This document shows, piece by piece, positions 12,600 through 22,262 of a stretch of DNA of 64,000 bases (the first letter of the stretch is position 1; the number at the start of each line of letters is the position of its first letter). A program made the position numbers and the translations under genes. Under the pieces are notes generated by a model. It was not told the DNA's origin. It made no database searches and worked only from the letters and a program-made list of their open reading frames with translations. The stretch is from an uncultured Nitrospiraceae bacterium. Its GTDB lineage: Bacteria > Nitrospirota > Nitrospiria > Nitrospirales > Nitrospiraceae. The stretch spans positions 768,001 through 832,000 of the forward strand of contig CAVSTP010000003.1 of NCBI GenBank assembly GCA_963730935.1. The letters run 5' to 3'.

Positions 12600-13751
12600 T
12601 CAGGCGTCTGAGCGGCTGGAGGGATTGGTCGCAATGGCCATCGCGGGCAACGACGCCTTGCATTCCTGCACGACCTGGGTGAACAAGACGGTGAGCGCGG
12701 GGTCGAAATAGGTCCCCGCCCGTTCGGTAAGAAACCTGCTGGCGTCGTCGATCGAGAGCGCGGTGCGGTCCGGGAGTTCGGCGGTGAGGTGGTCGAACGC
12801 TTGGGCCAGGCTGACGATTCTCGCCAGGATCGGAATGCCTTCCCCTTTCAGCCCGTGCGGATACCCTGAGCCGTCCCACCTTTCGTGGTGATAGGCAATG
12901 ATCTGCCCGGCGGCTGCGGGCAGGCCGAGGGGGCCCACCATCTTTGCACCGATTTCCGGGTGCGCACGCAGCTCGTTCTCGCGGTCTCTCGCCACGATTT
13001 CATCGTCGGCAAAGCGGTACGGCTCTTTGCCGATCTTGCCGATGTCATGGAGAAACGCGCCAAGCGCCAGTGATTTCTGCTCGTCCACGGTGAGATTGGT
13101 CCGGTTGGCAAGCAAGGTGGCGTAAAAACTCACGCGGCTGCAATGGTTTAAGAGCTGACGGTCTTTGGCTTCAAGGAGATCGGAGAGCATGGGCAGCAGA
13201 TCCGCAGTATCGTCTCCCCATGGCAGGGTCGGGCTGCCTGATCGACCGATGGCCTCGTACCCGGCCCGTAGCTCCTGCCAGGCCTGTGCACATTGGGCTT
13301 CAGACCCCCACAGAGCATTGGACGCCTGAAGATAGCGGCGAAGATAGTCGAGCCGCTGTTTCTTTTCCAGCGTCTGATTGACCAGGGTAATGAGTTCCGT
13401 GACGTTGAAGGGTTTGAGCAGATACCCTGCGGCCCCATGCCTGATACCTTCCATCGCAGATCTGAGACTGCCGTATCCGGTAATGATGATGACTTCGATA
13501 TCGGCATGATCTTGTTTGATTTCCTGCAGTAGATCGAGGCCTTGCCGATCGGGAAGCTTCTGGTCCAGCGTAATAAGGTCGATCTGCTGCTGATTCAGCA
13601 CATCGATGGCGGCTTGGGCCGATTCGGCGGATTGAATGTTGAAGAAAGGACGGAGGATGACTTTCAACGCATCGCGTGGTCCTGCCTCATCATCGATGAC
13701 CAAGACGGTGGGCTTCTGCGTGGCCCTGTGCGGCTCGAAGGACGTTGCCAT
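12600..13751 (-). CDS. Response regulator with HD-GYP cyclic-dinucleotide phosphodiesterase domain
   Basis: REC (IDDE, LD, TGY, KPF) plus LHDIGK and HHERWDGSGYPHGLKGEGIP. Confidence 0.9.
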   Translation of the reverse strand: MATSFEPHRATQKPTVLVIDDEAGPRDALKVILRPFFNIQSAESAQAAIDVLNQQQIDLITLDQKLPDRQGLDLLQEIKQDHADIEVIIITGYGSLRSAMEGIRHGAAGYLLKPFNVTELITLVNQTLEKKQRLDYLRRYLQASNALWGSEAQCAQAWQELRAGYEAIGRSGSPTLPWGDDTADLLPMLSDLLEAKDRQLLNHCSRVSFYATLLANRTNLTVDEQKSLALGAFLHDIGKIGKEPYRFADDEIVARDRENELRAHPEIGAKMVGPLGLPAAAGQIIAYHHERWDGSGYPHGLKGEGIPILARIVSLAQAFDHLTAELPDRTALSIDDASRFLTERAGTYFDPALTVLFTQVVQECKASLPAMAIATNPSSRSDA

Positions 13752-13787
13752 ATGTTGTTCATGTACCCCGATGTACCTATTCTGTCA

Positions 13788-13803
13788 AGCAAAACGTATT
13801 CCT
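13788..13803 (-). promoter_or_regulatory. Candidate sigma-54 (-24/-12) promoter for the HD-GYP gene
   Basis: AGGAATACGTTTTGCT has GG-N10-GC with a TTGC -12 box, about 37 nt upstream of the ATG. Confidence 0.5.
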
Positions 13804-13956
13804 TTTCAGCTATTTATGCGTGGAAATTCTAGTGGATGTGGTGATGTGGCGCGATGGCCCTATATGTAGTTTCCACGTATGTGGCTCTACGTAGATTGGA
13901 ATTACGAAAACGCATGAAATGCTGCAGAATTCACGCAGTTCGAAACGCGGAGTGTG

Positions 13957-15405
13957 TTATTCCTGCCCGACAGGTTCAGGTTCAGGAGGGGTTGTGTCAT
14001 TGTCCGGACGGCCGATACCCAGTGTATCCATCCGGTACTTGAGCATGCGCCTGCTGATCCCGAGCTGGGTCGCGGCGTGGGTTTGCACATAGTTGTTCTT
14101 TTTCAATGCGTCAAGAATGATCTCCCGCTCGAATTCCATCACGGCCTTTTCGAGCGAGAGGCGGCCGGCTAGGGTGTCGTCTCGTAAAGAGGAGGACCGG
14201 GTGTCGTTGCGAAGGATGGTCGGAAGATGTTCGGGGGTGACGGCCTCTGAGCCCTTGGACCAGATGAACGCCTGTTCGATGATGTTTTCCATCTCTCGCA
14301 CGTTACCCGGCCACGGGTACCGGGTCAGGAGCTCAATCGCCTCCTTGGAGAACTCCTGGTTGGGCCGGCTCTCCTCCTCGATCCGCTTGGACAGGAAATG
14401 TTTCGCCAACAACGGAATATCTTCTCCTCGATCGCGAAGCGGGGGCAAGTACAACGCGATGACATTGATTCGGTAGTAGAGGTCCTCGCGGAACTGCCCT
14501 TTCCGGACCAGATCCTCGAGGTTCTTGTTCGTCGCGGCGACGATGCGAACGTCGACTTTGATGGCCTGTACGCCGCCGATGCGCGTGAATTCGCGTTCTT
14601 GCAGAACCCGCAGCAGCTTGGCCTGCGTCATGGGACTGAGGTCCCCGATTTCGTCGAGGAACAAGGTGCCGCTGTTGGCGAGCTCGAATTGACCCACGCG
14701 GCGAGCCGTCGCATCGGTGAACGAGCCCTTTTCGTGGCCGAACAGCTCGCTTTCGATCAACGTCTCGGGGAGGGCGGCGCAGTTCAACGCTATGAACGGG
14801 CGGTCCCGCCGTCCGCTGTTGTAATGCAGGGCCTTGGCGACCAGTTCCTTGCCGGTGCCGCTCTCACCGGTGATCAGCACCGTTGTCCTGCTATCGGCAA
14901 CCTGTTCGATCTTGCCGTAAATCTCCTGCATTGGCCGACTTTTGCCGATGAGGTTGTGGAACGCATATCGCTGAGTCACCTGCGCGCGCAGCTGTTTGAC
15001 TTCGCGCTCGAGCTCCTGAGAGTTGAGCGCGCGGTCCACGACGATCCGCAGTTCTTCGACGTCGAACGGCTTCGAGAGATAGTCTGCGGCTCCCAGCTTC
15101 ATGGCGTCGACCGCCGTTTTCACGGACTTGGTGCCGGTCAGCATGATGACGGGGGTCGGATTCTGCTCCGTCCGTAGCGCCTGGAGAACGGACAACCCGT
15201 CGGTTCCGGGAAGAATGACGTCGAGCAGCACGACATGCGGCGCTTCTTTGTGGAACAGATCGAGGCCTTCCTGCGCGTCGGCGGCCTGAATCACCTCATA
15301 CACCGGCTCGAGGACGGCCTTGAGCGACGCCCGGACACGGGCTTCGTCATCGACTAAGAGCACGCGCTTCTTCACACTCGACTCACTGCCGTTTTTTGAT
15401 GTCAT
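13957..15405 (-). CDS. Sigma-54-dependent response regulator (NtrC/AtoC family)
   Basis: REC; GESGTGKE; ESELFGHEKGSFTDA; FREDLYYR; WPGNVRE; Fis-type HTH. Confidence 0.95.
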   Translation of the reverse strand: MTSKNGSESSVKKRVLLVDDEARVRASLKAVLEPVYEVIQAADAQEGLDLFHKEAPHVVLLDVILPGTDGLSVLQALRTEQNPTPVIMLTGTKSVKTAVDAMKLGAADYLSKPFDVEELRIVVDRALNSQELEREVKQLRAQVTQRYAFHNLIGKSRPMQEIYGKIEQVADSRTTVLITGESGTGKELVAKALHYNSGRRDRPFIALNCAALPETLIESELFGHEKGSFTDATARRVGQFELANSGTLFLDEIGDLSPMTQAKLLRVLQEREFTRIGGVQAIKVDVRIVAATNKNLEDLVRKGQFREDLYYRINVIALYLPPLRDRGEDIPLLAKHFLSKRIEEESRPNQEFSKEAIELLTRYPWPGNVREMENIIEQAFIWSKGSEAVTPEHLPTILRNDTRSSSLRDDTLAGRLSLEKAVMEFEREIILDALKKNNYVQTHAATQLGISRRMLKYRMDTLGIGRPDNDTTPPEPEPVGQE

Positions 15406-16661
15406 GATGGGATCGCTGGGAGGTTGACGAGAAATGTCGTGCCGGCGCCGGCAACGCTTTTGACCTGTATGTCGCCATGGTGCTCTTCGATGATCTGGTG
15501 CACGATCGTCAAGCCGAGGCCGGTGCCTTCGTGTTCGCCGCTCTCGTGCTTGGTCGTGAAGAACGGATCAAAAATATGTTCGAGATTCGCCTCGGAAATC
15601 CCCTGTCCTGTGTCCTCGGTTTCTATTTGCACCCAGGGCCTGCCGCCAGGCTTGGCCAGCAACCTCGTCCGAACCCGCAGCACCCCGCCCTTTTCGCTCA
15701 TCGCATCCAAGGCGTTGAGAAACAGGTTAAGAAACACCTGCTTGATTTGCTGACGGTCCAGCATGACACGAGGGAGGTCGGGTGCCAATTCTTTTTCGAT
15801 CTTGATCCCGCGGCTGTCCGCCTTGACCTCGATGAAATATAAGCAGGAAGACACGATGTCGTTGACATCCTCCTCCGTTAGCTTCGGCTCCATGTAACGG
15901 GCGTAGTCGAGGATTTCCTCGATGAGGCGTTCGATCCGATACACGTCATCGAGCACGATGCGGCTGAATTCACGGATGAAATCGGCATCGTCTTTCCGTT
16001 CAGGGGCCAGCTGGATGAAGGTCTTGATGGAGGTCAGCGGATTGCGGATTTCGTGCGCAAATCCTCCAGCGATCGTTTCCAGCGACCTCAAGCGGTCTGT
16101 TCGCTTCATCAGGGCGTGCGAGCGGTGCAGGTCTTCCAACAGCATGCTGGTGTCGAGCGCATTGGTGGCGGTTTGAGCGAGCGCGTTGAGCAACGACACG
16201 ATAGACGTCGTGTCGTGCTCCTGGGTCCGGTTTCCTCCGAGGAGCGAAAACGCGATGAGCCGGCCGCGGCTGACATGCGGCAGGTTCCGCTCAGCTCGCA
16301 TAGCTGCGAGCGCATCAGCCAACGCCGTGCGGCACCCGTTGTGCGGCTCGGGGACCGTTTGGAGAGAAGACGACAGATGTTGCGGGATGGTGTGGGTCAG
16401 TGGGAGCGTACCGGGAAAACAGGACTCGGCGGCCAGGCCGACCAGGCCCGCACGACGAAAATGTTCATGCTCACGATCCAGGAGATACAGGGCGCCGTGA
16501 GTGGTGCCGCCCACACGGCAGAGTTCCTGAATAATGCGTTCGGACAGGGCGCCGAGATCGGTCATCGCGCCGATTTCGGTGGAGAAACGAGTCACCAAAT
16601 CCAGGAGATGTATGGGTGAAGCCGTCGACGCTGAGGCCATCTCGGTCGGTCGTACGCTCAT
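15402..16661 (-). CDS. Cytoplasmic sensor histidine kinase with GAF-like domain
   Basis: AHEIRNPL H-box, NLFLNALDA, DTGQGI, DPFFTTK, GTGLGL; no TM segment seen. Confidence 0.93.
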   Translation of the reverse strand: MSVRPTEMASASTASPIHLLDLVTRFSTEIGAMTDLGALSERIIQELCRVGGTTHGALYLLDREHEHFRRAGLVGLAAESCFPGTLPLTHTIPQHLSSSLQTVPEPHNGCRTALADALAAMRAERNLPHVSRGRLIAFSLLGGNRTQEHDTTSIVSLLNALAQTATNALDTSMLLEDLHRSHALMKRTDRLRSLETIAGGFAHEIRNPLTSIKTFIQLAPERKDDADFIREFSRIVLDDVYRIERLIEEILDYARYMEPKLTEEDVNDIVSSCLYFIEVKADSRGIKIEKELAPDLPRVMLDRQQIKQVFLNLFLNALDAMSEKGGVLRVRTRLLAKPGGRPWVQIETEDTGQGISEANLEHIFDPFFTTKHESGEHEGTGLGLTIVHQIIEEHHGDIQVKSVAGAGTTFLVNLPAIPS

Positions 16662-16723
16662 AGAGAGAAGGACGCGCCCCTATGCATGAGTCATCGCCGA
16701 CAGGAACGGGTTAGGTCATCATG

Positions 16724-16739
16724 TGCACATGAATGTGCA
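16724..16739. promoter_or_regulatory. Palindromic operator candidate
   Basis: TGCACAT-GA-ATGTGCA, a perfect 7-bp inverted repeat upstream of the kinase gene. Confidence 0.4.
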
Positions 16740-16770
16740 AACTTGTACAGAGAGGGGAGTATACACCGGC

Positions 16771-19700
16771 CTATCCAAGGGAGCCAGAGGAATTCTGTTT
16801 GCCGACAATGGCGACCAACGCCTGCCCATCGAAGATGGGAAGGATTCGGAAGGAGACGATTCCGCATTGTCTCAAGAGCGCCCCAAGACCCGCTTCATCG
16901 AATGTATGCAGGATGCCGTGACGGATCGCTTCTTGTAGCCGGGCAAAGTAGTGAAGCAGCGGTTGCGCTTGGGCACTGAACTCGTCCTGGTTGGCCTGCC
17001 GCAGATGCCGCCGATAGACAGGAGAAAGATCCGTGTTCGGATGGAAGACGGTGAGAATCAGGCGGCCATCGGGATGTAGCACGCGGTGCCATTCCTTGAG
17101 GGTGGCGAGCGGGGAAGGCACATAGGGGAGTGCAAAGTTGCAGACCAGCCGGCTCACAGAGCCGGTCTTAAACGGGAGCGCAGACCTCCGATCGGCCTGA
17201 AGCCAGGCGATGGCAAGCGGCGGCATGGCAGACAGCCGGCCGACAAAGCCCGTCGCGAGCTCGCGTTGCAGCACCAGCACCGCATGGCGGGCCTGCCCGA
17301 TCCGCTCCCGCGACCGTCCGACGCCGACCATCAGCGGCGAAGGCCGGTCAGTCCAACTGGCCTTGCCGGCGCGGTACGTGTGATTGACCAGCGCAGTGCG
17401 GGTCAAATCACTTTGGCCGACGCCCGCATCGACCAGCAAGGCACCCGGCTCGAGCGGGCTCATCAGGCCATAGAGATCATCCAGCAGTTTTCGGTACTCA
17501 TGCAGGTTGCCCAGATGCGGCAATTGCGCGAGATGGGCCGCACAGAGCGCCTCTCGGTTGATTTGCGAACCGTCATGCCGCAGGAAGTTGTATTCCTGCT
17601 CGATGCGGTGTTGTCGCGCGACATAGGGCTGTGCGGCGATTTCCTGTTGAGGTGACATGGTCTGCACCGAAATGACGGAACTGATCTGCTTGAGCAGCTG
17701 TGTGAAGGCGGCGGGTGGCGCTCCGTGGACGTCGAGATGCCGGTCAGTGACCGGAGAGGAAAGGTTCACCAGCCTCGTATGGGTGCCCAACGCGGTCATG
17801 AATGCGTGCGGCAGATCGGTAGGCGGTAAGGCGGTGGAGTCAGCGGGGCTTGTGGCAATGCAGAGCGGCGAGCGAATCAACCGGAGATCTTCCAGGGTCG
17901 ATTCGAGATCGGCACACCGGCCGGCGAGTAGATCGCTGACGAACTGATCCACGTTGACGTTCAAGCCCAGCAGGTTACAGACGCCGCGCCGCAACCCGAA
18001 CTGGTAGTCGGCGAGGAGATCATGTCCATGGACCGCCATGAGGAGGCTCGCCACATCGATGGCTGGATTCACCAACAGGAGCAAATCCAGGGGGCGCGTA
18101 TGAGCGGCGATCTTCAATGCAGCGCGGGCAGCCAGATCGCCGGCGATCACCACGATCGGCGCTTGCGGCCAGGTGTGCCGTACAAACTCCAACACTTTTT
18201 CGAGATCATGCTGCATGCTGCGCAATGTTGTCTGTTGGAGTTCGCCCTCGCTGTTCCCGAGGTGATTGGTCGGATCGTAACGAAGCACGCGGAACCGATG
18301 TTGGGCCAAGTAGTAGCTGAAGGCCATATAGTCCGAGGCCGTTTGCCCATACCCCGGGGCAATGATGATCGTGGGGCAGTTGGGATCGGATAATTGACTG
18401 AGATGGTCGTCCGTGATCGCGATGGTCTGACCACGAGCGTTACGGCATTCGCGTGGCAGGCTGATCACCGGCGCCGCCGTTGAAAACGCTTCGCCGGATC
18501 GCTGGGCGCGGAGATGTTGTCTGATGACTCGGTTCAGCTCGCGCTCGGCATAGGGGGTCAGCGGCTCAAACCGGAGTCCTGCCCGTACCGCACTGGCCTG
18601 GTCCGCCGTATGGAATGCGCTAGGCGCCGTCGGATCGGCTGCCGTCCAGACGACACGCGCTGCGAGCGTGGTATCCGGCGCTCCCGGCTCATGTGACCCT
18701 GGCTCGCTGCGATGGGCGGGGGCGAAGTGAATTTCGACGCGTTCTCTCAGCGCCTCGGACCGTTCCCGCGTCAGGATGCATGCGCCGGAGCGGCTGAGAT
18801 TCATCACCTGTGCCTGAAGGCGAGTGCCGGCTTCCTGCTGGGAAGTCGTCTCCAGGCGGGCGGGTAAGGCCGTCGATACGCGAACTGTTTCCCGGCGGTC
18901 ATATTCGGCGAGCTCGAAAGAAAGGGGCCGATCAGTCTGCGGCAGAGTGACCGGGGTGGGGAGGTGGATGTCCAGTGTGAAGGCAAGTGCTCGCTCATGA
19001 GCGGCCGCGATGAGCGAGGCAAGGACTGCCGTCTCCGTCTGATTCGGCCCAGTAAATTGCACGATAAGTTGAATGTCCGGCTGAATCGACAGCTGGATCC
19101 CTGACGCTGCGGCGGTCCGTGTATGAGCCTGACCGCCAAGCTCCAATGTGGCGACAGCAGTCGTGATCCGGATGACCGCTTCCTGGGATGAGAGAGGTGG
19201 AAAGTCACCCTGTACTCGTATCCCAGCTCCACTCACACTGACGTTCATGACCGTTCCTTCCCAGACGGACGATCCTCTGGTGATCTTTGCCGGCAACGCC
19301 GTCTGGATCCGTGCGTTGCTGCGGCGCTCGGTGCGCGCGGTAGTGGCCAGGTCCTGGTCCGCCGAAGGGCTCACGGATGACGGCGCTTCGGCGGTTCGCT
19401 CGATGGCCGCCGCGTCAATAACCTGCGGCTGAAGGGATGCAGGAGCGTGCCCCGTCGGGAGGCGGACGATCATGCGAAACGGCCCTGAGGCCGGCGCGGA
19501 CACATCGAGCGTTGCTCCGAGCGCTCCGGCCAGTCGGTAAAGGCTGTGGACATCAAGGGTGTCGGTCAACGAAGGCAGGATGCGGCCTGAGGGGTTCACG
19601 GCCTCGGTTTCAGTGATGTCCAGATGGATGTGCGTGGCGGAAGCCACGGGAAACAGTGTGGGTGTGTCAGCCGAATCGCCCGTTTTGATGGAGAGGAGAT

Positions 19701-20955
19701 GAGGCCGAGCGACCGTTGCCAGATACGCGCCTGCATAGGCCAGCAACTGTCGGAATAAGCGGGCGGTGGTCTCGCGATCGCCGCTGTAGTCGGGAAGGGC
19801 CGAGGTGAAATCTGTCGTGAAGCCGCTCGATCCGGCGGCCGTCGATGCCGATTGTAACACCTCGTCGAGAAGGCGATTGATGATGTGCGCGGTTCCCGCC
19901 GGACGGGCCAGGCGCATCAATTGCTGAACCAGTTCTGCCGAGGCCGTGGCCTGGCCACGTAACGCTTGGAGACGGTCGAGGATGCGGGATTCGAGGAGCG
20001 TATCGGCGAGTTGCTGTGATTCGTGCACGAGAGTGGAGAGCGGCTGCTCGAGCTCCTGCGAGAGTTCAGCCATCTGCCGAATGACGGTCTGGAGTTCTTC
20101 TGCTCGCTGCCGCTGCTCGATGAATGCCTGCTGAGCGGTCTGCTCTTTTCTGCGGTGAGACACGTCTCGAATGATGCCGATGGTGCCGAGGAAGCGCCGC
20201 GACGCGTCGTACAATCCACGCGCAGTGACGGAGGCGAGCATGTGGCCCATGCCCTCGGCCGTCTTTCCTTGAAGTGTCACTTCAAATTCACTGACCGCCC
20301 GGTCGCCGGCGCGCCGCTCGTTGAAGCGAAAGTGTGCAAGCCGTTGCTCGGCCTCGGAAAACAACGTGGAGTATGAACGGCCGATCAGTTCTTCCGATCG
20401 GTAGCCCAGCGATGCCGGCAGATTGCGGCTCAGCGAGAGAAACCGTCCATCGGCGTCGAGTTCGTACAGGACATCCCCCAGGGAGTCGACGACCCAGGAA
20501 TGCCGGCGCTCCGCGCGTTCCGCCGCCAACCTGCTCTCACGTCTGTCGATGGCCTCCCTCGTGCAAAACAAGAGCTCGGTCAAAAACGCCGGAGAGTGTT
20601 TGTAAAGGAACAGGTCTGCGCCCATCTGAAGCGCCTCGAGCGCCGCCCCGGAATCGGTTCGGGACGTCTGTAAGATGATTGAGGCGTAGGGCATCCGATG
20701 CTTGAGGGCAGAGATGAAAGTTGAAGGCGGATCGGGCAGGGAGCTCTCGTCGACGAGTGCCATGGCCCACGCTTGCGCCGGGGCCTGAATCATTCGGTCG
20801 GCCTCCTCGGCGGAATAGGCGACTTCGATGCGGACGTCGGCAAAGAACCCGCGCAGGCTGATAGTGACGAGTTTGATCTCTTCGGCGTTCTCGTTGACGA
20901 GAAGGATGGTTATGGGTTCGCTCTGCGGCATCGGACCGGTATCCAAAGGAAACAC
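16771..20955 (-). CDS. Multidomain signalling protein: REC-PAS-pseudo-HisKA/HATPase-PilZ-PilZ-LuxD-like alpha/beta hydrolase-SAM methyltransferase
   Basis: PAS (DVLYELDADGRF...GTIGIIRDVS); SQELEQPL (H-box lacking His); ERRSNAR/NVSVSG and DRRETVR/NLSRSG (PilZ); IIIAPGYG...VLRYDPTNHLGNSEG (LuxD-like); VDAGVG, LPF...HRVLHPDGRL (methyltransferase). Confidence 0.8.
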   Translation of the reverse strand: MFPLDTGPMPQSEPITILLVNENAEEIKLVTISLRGFFADVRIEVAYSAEEADRMIQAPAQAWAMALVDESSLPDPPSTFISALKHRMPYASIILQTSRTDSGAALEALQMGADLFLYKHSPAFLTELLFCTREAIDRRESRLAAERAERRHSWVVDSLGDVLYELDADGRFLSLSRNLPASLGYRSEELIGRSYSTLFSEAEQRLAHFRFNERRAGDRAVSEFEVTLQGKTAEGMGHMLASVTARGLYDASRRFLGTIGIIRDVSHRRKEQTAQQAFIEQRQRAEELQTVIRQMAELSQELEQPLSTLVHESQQLADTLLESRILDRLQALRGQATASAELVQQLMRLARPAGTAHIINRLLDEVLQSASTAAGSSGFTTDFTSALPDYSGDRETTARLFRQLLAYAGAYLATVARPHLLSIKTGDSADTPTLFPVASATHIHLDITETEAVNPSGRILPSLTDTLDVHSLYRLAGALGATLDVSAPASGPFRMIVRLPTGHAPASLQPQVIDAAAIERTAEAPSSVSPSADQDLATTARTERRSNARIQTALPAKITRGSSVWEGTVMNVSVSGAGIRVQGDFPPLSSQEAVIRITTAVATLELGGQAHTRTAAASGIQLSIQPDIQLIVQFTGPNQTETAVLASLIAAAHERALAFTLDIHLPTPVTLPQTDRPLSFELAEYDRRETVRVSTALPARLETTSQQEAGTRLQAQVMNLSRSGACILTRERSEALRERVEIHFAPAHRSEPGSHEPGAPDTTLAARVVWTAADPTAPSAFHTADQASAVRAGLRFEPLTPYAERELNRVIRQHLRAQRSGEAFSTAAPVISLPRECRNARGQTIAITDDHLSQLSDPNCPTIIIAPGYGQTASDYMAFSYYLAQHRFRVLRYDPTNHLGNSEGELQQTTLRSMQHDLEKVLEFVRHTWPQAPIVVIAGDLAARAALKIAAHTRPLDLLLLVNPAIDVASLLMAVHGHDLLADYQFGLRRGVCNLLGLNVNVDQFVSDLLAGRCADLESTLEDLRLIRSPLCIATSPADSTALPPTDLPHAFMTALGTHTRLVNLSSPVTDRHLDVHGAPPAAFTQLLKQISSVISVQTMSPQQEIAAQPYVARQHRIEQEYNFLRHDGSQINREALCAAHLAQLPHLGNLHEYRKLLDDLYGLMSPLEPGALLVDAGVGQSDLTRTALVNHTYRAGKASWTDRPSPLMVGVGRSRERIGQARHAVLVLQRELATGFVGRLSAMPPLAIAWLQADRRSALPFKTGSVSRLVCNFALPYVPSPLATLKEWHRVLHPDGRLILTVFHPNTDLSPVYRRHLRQANQDEFSAQAQPLLHYFARLQEAIRHGILHTFDEAGLGALLRQCGIVSFRILPIFDGQALVAIVGKQNSSGSLG

Positions 20956-21075
20956 GGTTCCAGAGCGAGAGAAGTCACCATCCCGCGCCTCAACAAGTCG
21001 GACGGAACGGTCCCAGGCGTGGGTAGACGAATATCTACTGCTCGGGTCGGTAAGTGATTAGCACAGGTGTGCGCA

Positions 21076-21160
21076 AGAAACCCAGCCTGGCTCTGGGGGA
21101 AAGAGCTCCTACTTTCGTAGGGGACTGGGTGGCGTCCCGAAGGAAGTGCACCGGGTTTCT
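21076..21160 (-). other. Structured element: 10-bp closing stem plus three hairpins (four-way junction)
   Basis: Minus strand AGAAACCCGG/CTGGGTTTCT, GGAC/GTCC, CCTAC-GAAA-GTAGG, GCTCT/AGAGC. Confidence 0.55.
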
Positions 21161-21170
21161 CGTTAGACGG

Positions 21171-22166
21171 CTACCGGACGCTCGCCGTGGCGGGGGACGG
21201 ACAGGTTCCCGGAGTCATGTACAACAGGTAATTGCCCATGCCGTGCTGCGGATCCTGTTTCTGCAGGGGATGATGATGCACCATCACCATCTCGTAGTCG
21301 TCGTCCTTGGTGACAGGAAACCCTTGGGCGTCTTTGTAGACCTGATGCGGTTGAAACTCGAGGAAGGTGCCGTCGCGCATGACGTCCGGCACAGTGCGTA
21401 GGAGCGTCTGGTGTTTCGTCTTGTTCTCGAGCGCGATGAGCAGCAGCTCGTCGTGGCCGTGCGGATAGGCGAATTTCACGCAGCCATCCATGGCGAACTT
21501 CAATGGTGCGGTGTGGACCTGAACACCCGGCTTGATTTCGATGCCTTCGTCGGTCTGGTCCGGGCCACGCTGCGCGAATTTGCTGTAACACACGACGTTG
21601 ACGCCCACCTGGTAGACGTCCATCTCCTTCACCGGTTGATCCTCGGGCGCCATGTACATAGTGAAACTGGCCATCACATGCTTGGTCGGAGGCGCCTTAT
21701 GATAGAACGCCACGACCGACATCAGGTGTTGACCCTTGGCAAGCTTCACGCCGTAGCCTTCCGGGAATTTCGCTTCCGTCATCTCCAGTCCCGCTCCACC
21801 GAAAAACAGCGGCTCGCCGGGACAGGACACGCTGGGCTTGTCGTTGTTGAGCATGAGAATATGGTGCAGATAATTCCGGGGAAGCGCCTTCCCTTCCTGA
21901 GTGAACACCGCGGATTTGAAGCCCACCATATACATGTCTTTTGGAAGTTGGAAAATGTGCTTGGGCATCGAGGCGGCCAGGTCGCCTTCATGGCCTGAGG
22001 GAAGATCGATCGGTCCGAACGTCAGGGTGACGGCATTGTCTTTGATCGTGACGACGGTAGTAATCTGATTCTTCAGTGTCGGTACCGCATGGTGAGCATG
22101 GCCGCCGTCGGCAGAGACCGTAGAAGGCCACAGCCAGAGGGCTGCGAGAAGCACGATCCAACGCAT
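21171..22166 (-). CDS. Exported protein resembling copper type II ascorbate-dependent monooxygenases (PHM/DBH fold)
   Basis: Signal peptide MRWIVLLAALWLWPSTVSA after RBS GGAGGA; motifs YLHHILML, FPEGYGVKL, FAYPHGH, HGMGNYLLY. Confidence 0.6.
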   Translation of the reverse strand: MRWIVLLAALWLWPSTVSADGGHAHHAVPTLKNQITTVVTIKDNAVTLTFGPIDLPSGHEGDLAASMPKHIFQLPKDMYMVGFKSAVFTQEGKALPRNYLHHILMLNNDKPSVSCPGEPLFFGGAGLEMTEAKFPEGYGVKLAKGQHLMSVVAFYHKAPPTKHVMASFTMYMAPEDQPVKEMDVYQVGVNVVCYSKFAQRGPDQTDEGIEIKPGVQVHTAPLKFAMDGCVKFAYPHGHDELLLIALENKTKHQTLLRTVPDVMRDGTFLEFQPHQVYKDAQGFPVTKDDDYEMVMVHHHPLQKQDPQHGMGNYLLYMTPGTCPSPATASVR

Positions 22167-22262
22167 AGTTCCTCCAAAACGACGTGAGTTCATCGAAGCT
22201 TGACATCTCGAGCGTTTAGCATGCGCCGCCTGTGCCTGAGCAGTCTGTTCAATTCTGATCAA

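Follow-up and report, generated by a model that had tools for sequence, protein, structure and literature searches.

Four co-oriented genes lie side by side in the window (the whole 64,000-nucleotide stretch of Nitrospiraceae DNA analysed here), and their domains raise the question of whether a fatty-acyl signal is produced at this locus and linked to the turnover of c-di-GMP, as a sequence-only reading had proposed. The gene arrangement and the domains named in that reading were borne out by the minus-strand coordinates and by domain searches (Table 1). Its statement that the proteins lack transmembrane segments also held, as no segment was convincing by hydropathy: the highest 19-residue value was 1.82, within the hydrolase core of the giant protein, and the kinase maximum was 1.05. 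The synteny check that it had suggested came out in its favour, with the identical gene order at 23 of 27 loci in the genus, the remaining 4 being interrupted by contig ends. Outside the genus the order was kept at seven of nine loci, with mostly different flanks.

The giant gene is single copy in the genome and likely starts at the ATG at 20931 rather than the GTG at 20955, since the ATG is conserved in the alignment. The kinase stop codon overlaps the activator start. The genome also carries seven GGDEF and two EAL genes. A genome-collection scan covering 3 of 64 parts returned 57 loci, 2 of them true family members, and plasmids gave no family match covering 80%. Contigs from four RNA-library runs gave a flat coverage indistinguishable from DNA, and hence no evidence for transcription or for start sites. 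No description of the locus was found in open-access text on Nitrospira LuxD, PilZ/c-di-GMP, HD-GYP or quorum sensing.

Table 1. Genes, domains and candidate cis elements of the cassette, numbered from the first letter of the window.
Feature	Position	Strand	Basis or detail
REC-HD-GYP protein	12600..13751	-	Gln199 and Gln317 in place of the PmGH metal ligands E185 and D305
TTGACA directly next to the -12 element, possible sigma-70-type promoter with poor -10	13783..13788	-	19/29 spacers
Sigma-54-type -24/-12 site preceding the HD-GYP gene	13788..13803	-	Spacer conservation
Degenerate second NrdR-like box, 31 bp nearer the promoter	13829..13838	.	Outer bases conserved, centre not
NrdR-box-like palindrome upstream of the HD-GYP promoter	13857..13872	.	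Core 13860-13869
Candidate enhancer motif over the activator's stop, some 160 bp before the -24 element	13954..13966	-	57/63 spacers
REC-AAA+-HTH sigma-54 activator	13957..15405	-	Domain searches; Asp62, GSFTDA loop
Soluble GAF-HisKA-HATPase kinase	15402..16661	-	His203 and ATP boxes intact; related to HisKA_7TM kinases, truncated
Imperfect, operator-like palindrome just downstream of TATACT	16734..16748	-	24/34 spacers; only 7/34 in other genera
TATACT right after the giant stop, likely internal -10 for kinase and activator	16758..16763	-	25/34 spacers; 34/34 further loci
Giant gene: REC-PAS-(kinase-like remnant)-PilZ-PilZ-LuxD-like pseudo-thioesterase-degenerate methyltransferase	16771..20955	-	ORFs, domain searches
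Class I methyltransferase fold	16786..17628	-	Gly1213 (codon 17317-17319) in place of the motif II acid; Ser in place of the last motif I Gly
LuxD-like alpha/beta fold	17671..18468	-	Asp940 (codon 18136-18138) in place of the nucleophile Ser; remodelled acid and His region
PilZ 2 of the giant protein	18502..18909	-	Both c-di-GMP motifs, 28/28 rows; Pfam E 1.9e-16
PilZ 1 of the giant protein, RxxxR and [DN]x[SG]xxG	18961..19341	-	Both motifs, 25/28 rows
Possible dead histidine-kinase remnant, His position occupied by Gln300	19441..20100	-	Weak assignment
Atypical receiver, phospho-Asp69 present, first acidic pair replaced by Asn/Ser-x	20551..20916	-	Alignment, weak Pfam match
Near-palindromic DNA box CCTAC-N4-GTAGG before the giant gene	21107..21123	-	23/26 spacers

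What the sequence-only reading overlooked is that the catalytic residues of the LuxD-like and methyltransferase parts are gone and those of the HD-GYP protein partly so. The hydrolase part has a predicted LuxD-type fold (pLDDT 88.7, best structural match LuxD 1THT), but the Ser-Asp-His triad is missing, and the alignment showed none of the three residues to be conserved across the degenerate clade. A His sits two residues off the catalytic column in this copy and is absent from near relatives, among them L033, L038 and L039. The hydrolase core and cap are nevertheless the best-conserved parts of the giant protein, at 66-67% identity among distant members of the genus, compared with 35% in the acid/His region. 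The invariant Asp940 could serve other chemistry; an Asp-nucleophile hydrolase is unlikely because the conserved His is missing, although it is possible for L055, which has Asp-Asp-His at the triad positions. The methyltransferase domain lacks a complete motif I Gly loop and the motif II acid, while its motif I Asp and two Gly are still present.

Both PilZ domains of the giant protein carry the motifs of c-di-GMP receptors, and its receiver keeps its Asp in 24 of 24 rows, with a DD/ED pair in none. The presumed kinase remnant gave a weak AtoS match spanning residues 151-408, with no confirmation by hhalign (probability 0.4); it is absent from L102 and L055 and was gained inside the degenerate clade. 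In the HD-GYP protein, six of the eight PmGH metal ligands remain, together with D183, K225, D308 and GYP, while R314 is lost and D305 is retained in 1 of 31 rows. With two of eight metal ligands changed, c-di-GMP turnover is doubtful, even if the PmGH single mutants E185A and D305A retain reduced activity according to PMC4159591.

We then compared this copy with its relatives. Of 102 family rows, 64 have Ser-Asp-His and 32 have Asp in place of Ser. A 7TM kinase comes next in 56 of the 64 triad rows, none was seen in 8, and a TM-less kinase follows in none; of the 32 Asp-type rows, 31 are followed by a TM-less kinase and 25 have lost the SAM-binding acid. The intact triad aligns with that of LuxD 1THT and is invariant among 32 diverse family members. 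Dead copies formed one branch nested within the intact family (SH-aLRT 98) in a tree made by a quick method without bootstrap, in which 32 of the 102 rows had been thinned out by hand and the long branches L116, L099 and L112 were placed unsurely. The tree places the combined loss in just one or two events, so it gives no statistical correlation.

Two relatives, L102 and L052, have the four genes in intact form: a thioesterase-methyltransferase gene is followed directly by a 7TM kinase gene, and the activator and HD-GYP genes are those found here; L052 also has the same flanking genes. In the copy here, no membrane sensor kinase stands beside the synthase, as the kinase has neither a transmembrane segment nor a HisKA_7TM domain, and its membrane part was lost secondarily. 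The cassette appears to descend from a membrane receptor paired with a probable lipid-signal synthase. The family forms a graded series, from L102 and L052 through the sensor-less Ser-to-Asp forms L055 and L109 to the fully dead form here, which opens the change from signal enzyme to regulator to direct testing. The intact members suggest an acyl signal not yet described and, for HisKA_7TM, a possible class of ligand; the text seen on that domain names none. All 12 genomes of one sister genus carry an intact-type copy alongside a giant one (three intact-type loci and one giant locus were read), so the giant protein is not a spare synthase. Related Nitrospira genomes retain the dead cassette almost universally, and it therefore probably controls something that they need.

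The genome's only HisKA_7TM kinase is an orphan whose phosphotransfer helices are 74% identical to those of the kinase here, the next best of 19 reaching 38%. Its gene, at C3:433413-435626, follows an acyl-ACP-reductase-like gene at 10 of 10 loci. It was found in only 8 of 32 other genomes of the genus (a ninth has a different one), and the same query did not find it in four near-complete genomes of the genus. Comparing receivers gave only a weak signal: among 135 of them, that of the HD-GYP protein agreed at 12 of the 22 kinase-facing positions, tied for first place with two unrelated receivers; the giant receiver agreed at just 5.

Turning to the cis elements, the -24/-12 site of the sequence-only reading was found in the proposed place and is conserved, with GG-N10-GC retained in 22 of 29 orthologous spacers and 28 of 34 further ones, but taken alone it is within chance (34 of 100 shuffles match). 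The genome encodes RpoN, and the site has the form of a sigma-54 promoter. The GG, at 13801-13802 here, is missing from 6 of 29 spacers that retain TTGACA, and a sigma-70 scan returned no sites, TTGACA being below its threshold. The predicted activator has Walker A and B motifs and a GAFTGA-type loop, in the form GSFTDA in 33 of 38 orthologues; NorR G266D, with Asp at the second Gly of the loop, is active according to PMC2941729. In the candidate enhancer motif, CAC follows the activator stop in 50 of 63 spacers, and part of the conservation may reflect the encoded C-terminus.

The elements before the giant and kinase genes were less well predicted. The putative structured element folds weakly (z -1.70, equalled by 9 of 200 shuffles), shows no compensation in its conserved core and has no significant Rfam match, so we rejected an RNA element in favour of a DNA box, whose spacing to a weak promoter-like stretch is constant. 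The palindrome that the sequence-only reading had noted ahead of the kinase gene, taken to lie at 16722..16739, recurred in none of 33 other spacers. The kinase-activator pair seems to own a promoter and need not depend on the giant gene. A whole-genome regulon search with three boxes gave no clear additional targets.

NrdR is an ATP/dATP sensor of nucleotide reduction. The core of the NrdR-like box is identical to a box that precedes the class II ribonucleotide reductase gene of this genome, and an NrdR gene scored above its cut-off. A matrix from ribonucleotide reductase promoters gave 10.2-20.6 bits in 25 of 31 spacers, and the box ranks 14th in the genome. At the second box the outer bases C, A, T and G are kept in 24, 22, 24 and 24 of 25 spacers, with a negative matrix score in all 25. 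A box pair at 31-32 bp was found in 16 of 39 spacers of other genera at a lax cut-off and in 0 of 25 of the genus-level set; PMC12051234 gives spacings of 14-17 or 24-27 bp, and PMC4409342 gives topA as a single-box target outside nrd genes. The box resembles the NrdR regulon in matching the ribonucleotide reductase boxes of this lineage, and differs in lying upstream of the sigma-54 site of a c-di-GMP gene, with a second box that fails the matrix in the genus. An NrdR site at such a gene would extend the regulon.

Taken together, we hold it somewhat probable that the dead synthase is a c-di-GMP-binding regulator of the sensor-less kinase and that the cassette is an internal switch rather than a signal maker. 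In intact relatives, ACP would give up an acyl chain that is then methylated and recognised by the 7TM domain. The PilZ pair of the giant protein here would bind c-di-GMP, its core and cap might hold an acyl ligand, and the protein would control the kinase by contact. The kinase would phosphorylate the activator and HD-GYP receivers but not the giant protein's own, the activator would drive the HD-GYP gene from the -24/-12 site, and the HD-GYP protein would either work slowly as an enzyme or act as an effector that binds c-di-GMP. In genomes that have one, a second enzyme-plus-7TM-kinase cassette at another site would feed the same receivers. Contact regulation of the kinase and the HD-GYP role are the weakest steps. 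A broader version, which seems to us distinctly unlikely, sees a quorum-sensing-type circuit redirected to internal use. In it, synthase and membrane receptor would have decayed together, the regulator would be gated by c-di-GMP and acyl ligands while bound to the kinase, and NrdR, acting at the output gene's sigma-54 promoter, would tie DNA-precursor status to c-di-GMP signalling across Nitrospiraceae.

An ordinary two-component module, in which the kinase senses an input with its GAF domain and drives the activator and the HD-GYP gene, and the giant protein has merely stayed in place as a separate receptor for c-di-GMP, is an unlikely but still credible account. It accords with the separate promoter-like elements before the giant, kinase and HD-GYP genes, the recN, trx and lptD flanks that are just as syntenic inside the family, the poor kinase-facing match of the giant receiver, and L116, which has the giant, activator and HD-GYP genes but no kinase gene. 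It fits poorly with the adjacency of enzyme and kinase genes across the family in unrelated contexts, including one archaeal contig, with a kinase GAF region that varies while the core is nearly invariant, and with the loss of signal-related parts from synthase and kinase on the same branch.

The originally proposed loop would have c-di-GMP control the synthesis of a methylated fatty-acyl signal by the giant protein, the soluble kinase detect that signal, and a working HD-GYP enzyme bring c-di-GMP down. It could appeal to the intact fold, the invariant Asp at the nucleophile elbow, the surviving motif I residues and HD-GYP ligands, and the nearby His. With the acyl-processing and methylating sites degenerate, that His gone in close relatives, the SAM-binding acid mostly lost, the sensor missing and both E185 and D305 replaced by Gln, we judge it highly improbable for this copy. 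It is also improbable that the activator and HD-GYP receivers are a fixed output of mobile enzyme-plus-7TM-kinase cassettes, with the soluble kinase mainly a phosphatase or baseline and the giant protein an acyl-ligand sink. The helix identity with the orphan kinase, the sister-genus intact pairs with no adjoining regulator, and an HD-GYP orthologue lying apart from the pair in four of four genomes of another family speak for such a hub; against it, the cassette persists where the query found no such kinase, and the activator orthologue was not found in five of five distant genomes with the pair (best 47-48%).

The internal switch that we favour can be set beside several known systems. For Ralstonia Phc quorum sensing, PMC11960443 describes a phcBSR operon with the PhcB methyltransferase, the PhcS kinase and PhcR/PhcQ. 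A methyltransferase-type signal maker encoded with a sensor kinase and receivers appears alike in the intact relatives, by gene arrangement, so the proposed Phc analogy suits their synthase and 7TM kinase but not the copy here, where enzyme sites and sensor are lost. Further differences from Phc are the fusion of a LuxD-type thioesterase and PilZ domains to the methyltransferase, the HisKA_7TM-GAF type of sensor, and an output made up of a sigma-54 activator and an HD-GYP protein. LuxD of Vibrio harveyi (1THT, PF02273), a myristoyl-ACP thioesterase, is the best sequence and structure match, although the giant protein scores 48.7 against an NCBIfam cut-off of 420, has fused domains and no adjoining lux genes, and has lost the triad. 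PrsK/PrsR (PEP-CTERM) and AtoS/AtoC, which pair a membrane-GAF kinase with a sigma-54 activator, are among the top NCBIfam matches, all below cut-off (PrsK 100 of 300, PrsR 435.7 of 502.6, AtoC 525 of 714).

The HD-GYP protein shares the HD, HH and GYP motifs of PmGH (4MCW), and by alignment it has the same Gln for the last metal Asp as the first HD-GYP domain of V-cGAP3 (5Z7C), which is a pseudo-domain. The DSF system likewise keeps an acyl-ACP-processing enzyme, a kinase and a REC-HD-GYP protein together as RpfF-RpfC-RpfG. The locus here differs from it, as the crotonase-family (DSF synthase) domain is absent from all four proteins by Pfam, the kinase is not a hybrid and the HD-GYP protein is partly degenerate. 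In DSF, RpfF holds RpfC in check through contact, which sets a precedent for an enzyme acting as a regulator.

All four co-oriented genes proposed by the sequence-only reading were present on the minus strand, and no convincing transmembrane (TM) segment was found in any of the four proteins, as that reading had held. Pfam and NCBIfam assigned PAS, two PilZ, LuxD-like and methyltransferase domains plus a weak receiver to the giant protein, GAF-HisKA-HATPase to the kinase, REC-AAA+-HTH to the activator, and REC-HD-GYP to the product of the last gene. The giant gene is single-copy in its genome, and homologues carry names from Nitrospira/Nitrospirota. We then analyzed linkage in other genomes, the check that had been proposed, in 36 loci (27 from the window's genus, 9 from other genera or families). 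The four genes occurred in order in 23 of the 27 genus loci, the remaining 4 running into a contig edge, and together in 7 of the 9 others, two of these with one inserted gene; the recN flank was retained in only two of those 7. Of 351 genomes sampled from the phylum, 63 contained the thioesterase-methyltransferase part. One genus carried two copies in 12/12 genomes: the giant copy sits in a four-gene cassette, and behind the shorter one lies a membrane kinase gene that has no regulator gene beside it. The cassette is real and conserved, and it is undescribed in the open-access literature searched, where no description of the locus was found; the available portions of PilZ surveys do not mention fusion with LuxD-like/methyltransferase domains.

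Coordinates of the cassette and of related features (C3 and C4, contigs of the window's genome; L, loci read from genomes)
Feature	Location	Strand	Observation
Giant gene	window 16771-20955	minus	
Kinase gene	window 15402-16661	minus	
Activator gene	window 13957-15405	minus	
HD-GYP gene	window 12600-13751	minus	
-24/-12 site	window 13788-13803		
Conserved Nitrospirota gene	window 21171-22262	minus	Immediately upstream of the giant gene wherever the place is covered (26 loci of the 36); no Pfam family; Atlas hints at SURNod19 or copper monooxygenase-like proteins as distant relations (0.90-0.92), no more than a lead
Best NrdR-matrix score of the genome	C4:1646871-1646918		20.6 bits; weak partner 31 bp off; no identified nrd gene behind it
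Match to giant gene's CCTAC box	C4:465452 region		20 bits, in ribonucleotide reductase gene leader; may be chance
Acyl-ACP-reductase-like gene, then directly HisKA_7TM-GAF kinase	C3:433413-437351 (L096:9414-13352)	minus	PigE N-terminal and AAR matches of the enzyme do not reach the cut-off; upstream, a divergently oriented FadL-type porin gene; downstream, a type I secretion set on the opposite strand
Orphan REC-HD-GYP paralogue	C4:62813-63946 (L097:6814-7947)		50% identical to window's; Gln at last metal-ligand position, as there
Other PilZ-fused enzymes (iron-redox/CADD-like or KAS III) just before 7TM kinase	L051:6801-8150; L054:7158-8756; L117:6933-8498		L051, L054: thioesterase without Ser, reading as enzyme replacement within one cassette
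Candidate for same slot	L053:7116-8468		Start resembles L051 gene
Distant version, other families	L113:6382-13486; L115:6203-14305		Acyl-CoA dehydrogenase, PilZ-hydrolase-methyltransferase, receiver-bearing membrane kinase containing two kinase cores
Genes just downstream of cassette	L055:330-4072 (genome G034)		FeeM-type N-acyl amino acid synthase with cNMP domain, ThiF, nitroreductase-like

In the window's copy of the giant protein, Asp940 occupies the nucleophile position, the stretch around the acid and His has been remodelled, and Gly1213 stands in methyltransferase motif II; the motif II acid is missing in 25 of 32 Asp-type members. The hydrolase fold is retained (pLDDT 88.7; best structural match 1THT), and conservation within the protein is highest in core and cap (66-67% versus 35% for the acid/His region). 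PilZ motifs are retained in 25/28 and 28/28 members for the two domains. Outside the window's clade, the hydrolase Ser, Asp, and His align with LuxD 1THT, the triad is invariant across 32 diverse family members, and the methyltransferase retains the acid of motif II along with motif I. In a quick, unbootstrapped tree of 70 of the 102 members, the degenerate copies formed a single branch within the intact family, locus L055 being unsettled, so the catalytic residues would have been lost in one or two events.

The kinases followed the same division. Those of the relatives carry one or two HisKA_7TM domains. We tallied 102 aligned members, with 20 duplicate loci and fragments of <440 residues left out. 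Among the 64 that kept the triad, a 7TM kinase lay within 2.5 kb in 56 and none was seen in 8 (5 near a contig end); none of the 64 had a TM-less kinase beside it. Asp replaced Ser in 32 members, 31 with a TM-less kinase and one that ends too soon. Two lacked Ser with the 7TM kinase still there, and each had another PilZ-fused enzyme gene (KAS III, or iron-redox/CADD-like) between the thioesterase and the kinase genes; the last four were locus L116 and three distant members whose His alignment is uncertain. The thioesterase-methyltransferase and kinase pair also occurred on an archaeal contig, and two loci (L102, L052) held intact versions of the four-gene cassette.

The match of the -24/-12 site before the HD-GYP gene is not significant alone, and what holds up is its conservation: GG-N10-GC was kept in 22/29 and 28/34 orthologous spacers. 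An abutting TTGACA was kept in 19/29, and at least one of the two in 28/29. The palindrome reported before the kinase is private to the window's genome; the conserved features there are TATACT after the giant gene's stop and an operator-like box. The supposed structured element before the giant gene turned out to be a DNA box at fixed spacing, with no RNA fold. Given separate promoter-type elements for the giant, kinase, and HD-GYP genes, the cassette probably comprises three transcription units. Upstream of the -24 element, at a distance of 66 or 76 bp, lies a box whose core is identical to that of a box before the genome's ribonucleotide reductase gene. An NrdR-type matrix built exclusively from 10 ribonucleotide reductase promoter boxes scored it at 10.2-20.6 bits in 25/31 spacers (rank 14 in the window's genome). 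NrdR needs a partner box spaced 31-32 bp, according to the available text of PMC12051234; at that distance a score >0 was found in 16/39 spacers of other genera and in 0/25 of the genus-level set, the latter conserving only the outer bases. On these sequence grounds, the chances that NrdR binds the predicted box are roughly balanced, the rival being that such boxes are sites of the neighbouring activator. A second candidate enhancer is a motif that spans the stop codon of the activator gene (57/63 spacers).

The activator loop reads GSFTDA in 33/38 orthologues, and NorR stays active with the equivalent Gly-to-Asp change (PMC2941729, available part). Relative to PmGH, the HD-GYP protein keeps six of eight metal ligands, with Gln standing at the E185 and D305 positions and R314 absent; Asp was found at the D305 position in 1 of 31 members covering it. 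Since single alanine mutants of PmGH at E185 and D305 keep reduced activity (PMC4159591, available part), the protein is predicted to have low activity or to act by binding. Its REC-HD-GYP orthologue persists in four genomes of another family (L273, L275, L276, L277) away from the enzyme-kinase pair, with Asn at the last ligand and no close activator orthologue. At 22 kinase-facing positions compared across 135 receivers, with the activator's as reference, the HD-GYP receiver was a tied best match (12/22) and the giant protein's scored 5/22, which weakly suggests that the kinase has two receiver substrates, not three.

We lean modestly towards reading the cassette as an internalised remnant. 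The dead synthase, the giant protein, would bind c-di-GMP, perhaps an acyl ligand too, and set the activity of the sensor-less kinase; this would phosphorylate the activator and the HD-GYP protein, and the activator would induce the HD-GYP gene. Judging by the joint history of enzyme and kinase, and with RpfF-RpfC as a precedent, the giant protein would do so through contact with the kinase. That it is an independent neighbour seems unlikely. Somewhat less probable still is a relay hub for distant 7TM kinases. The cassette kinase has a nearly invariant core and a variable GAF domain, and the phosphotransfer helices of the one HisKA_7TM kinase in the window's genome, an orphan, are 74% shared with it (next best kinase, 38%). 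This orphan lies behind an acyl-ACP-reductase-like gene in 10/10 loci, the two on C3 being a candidate second signal enzyme-receptor pair; it was found in just 8/32 other genus genomes, and is therefore an optional input at most. The active acyl-signal loop of the sequence-only reading is the least probable, given the residues changed in the window's copy. As for the intact family members, they and Phc-type signalling have a common layout (PMC11960443, available part), and by this analogy a synthase-receptor role is likely for them.
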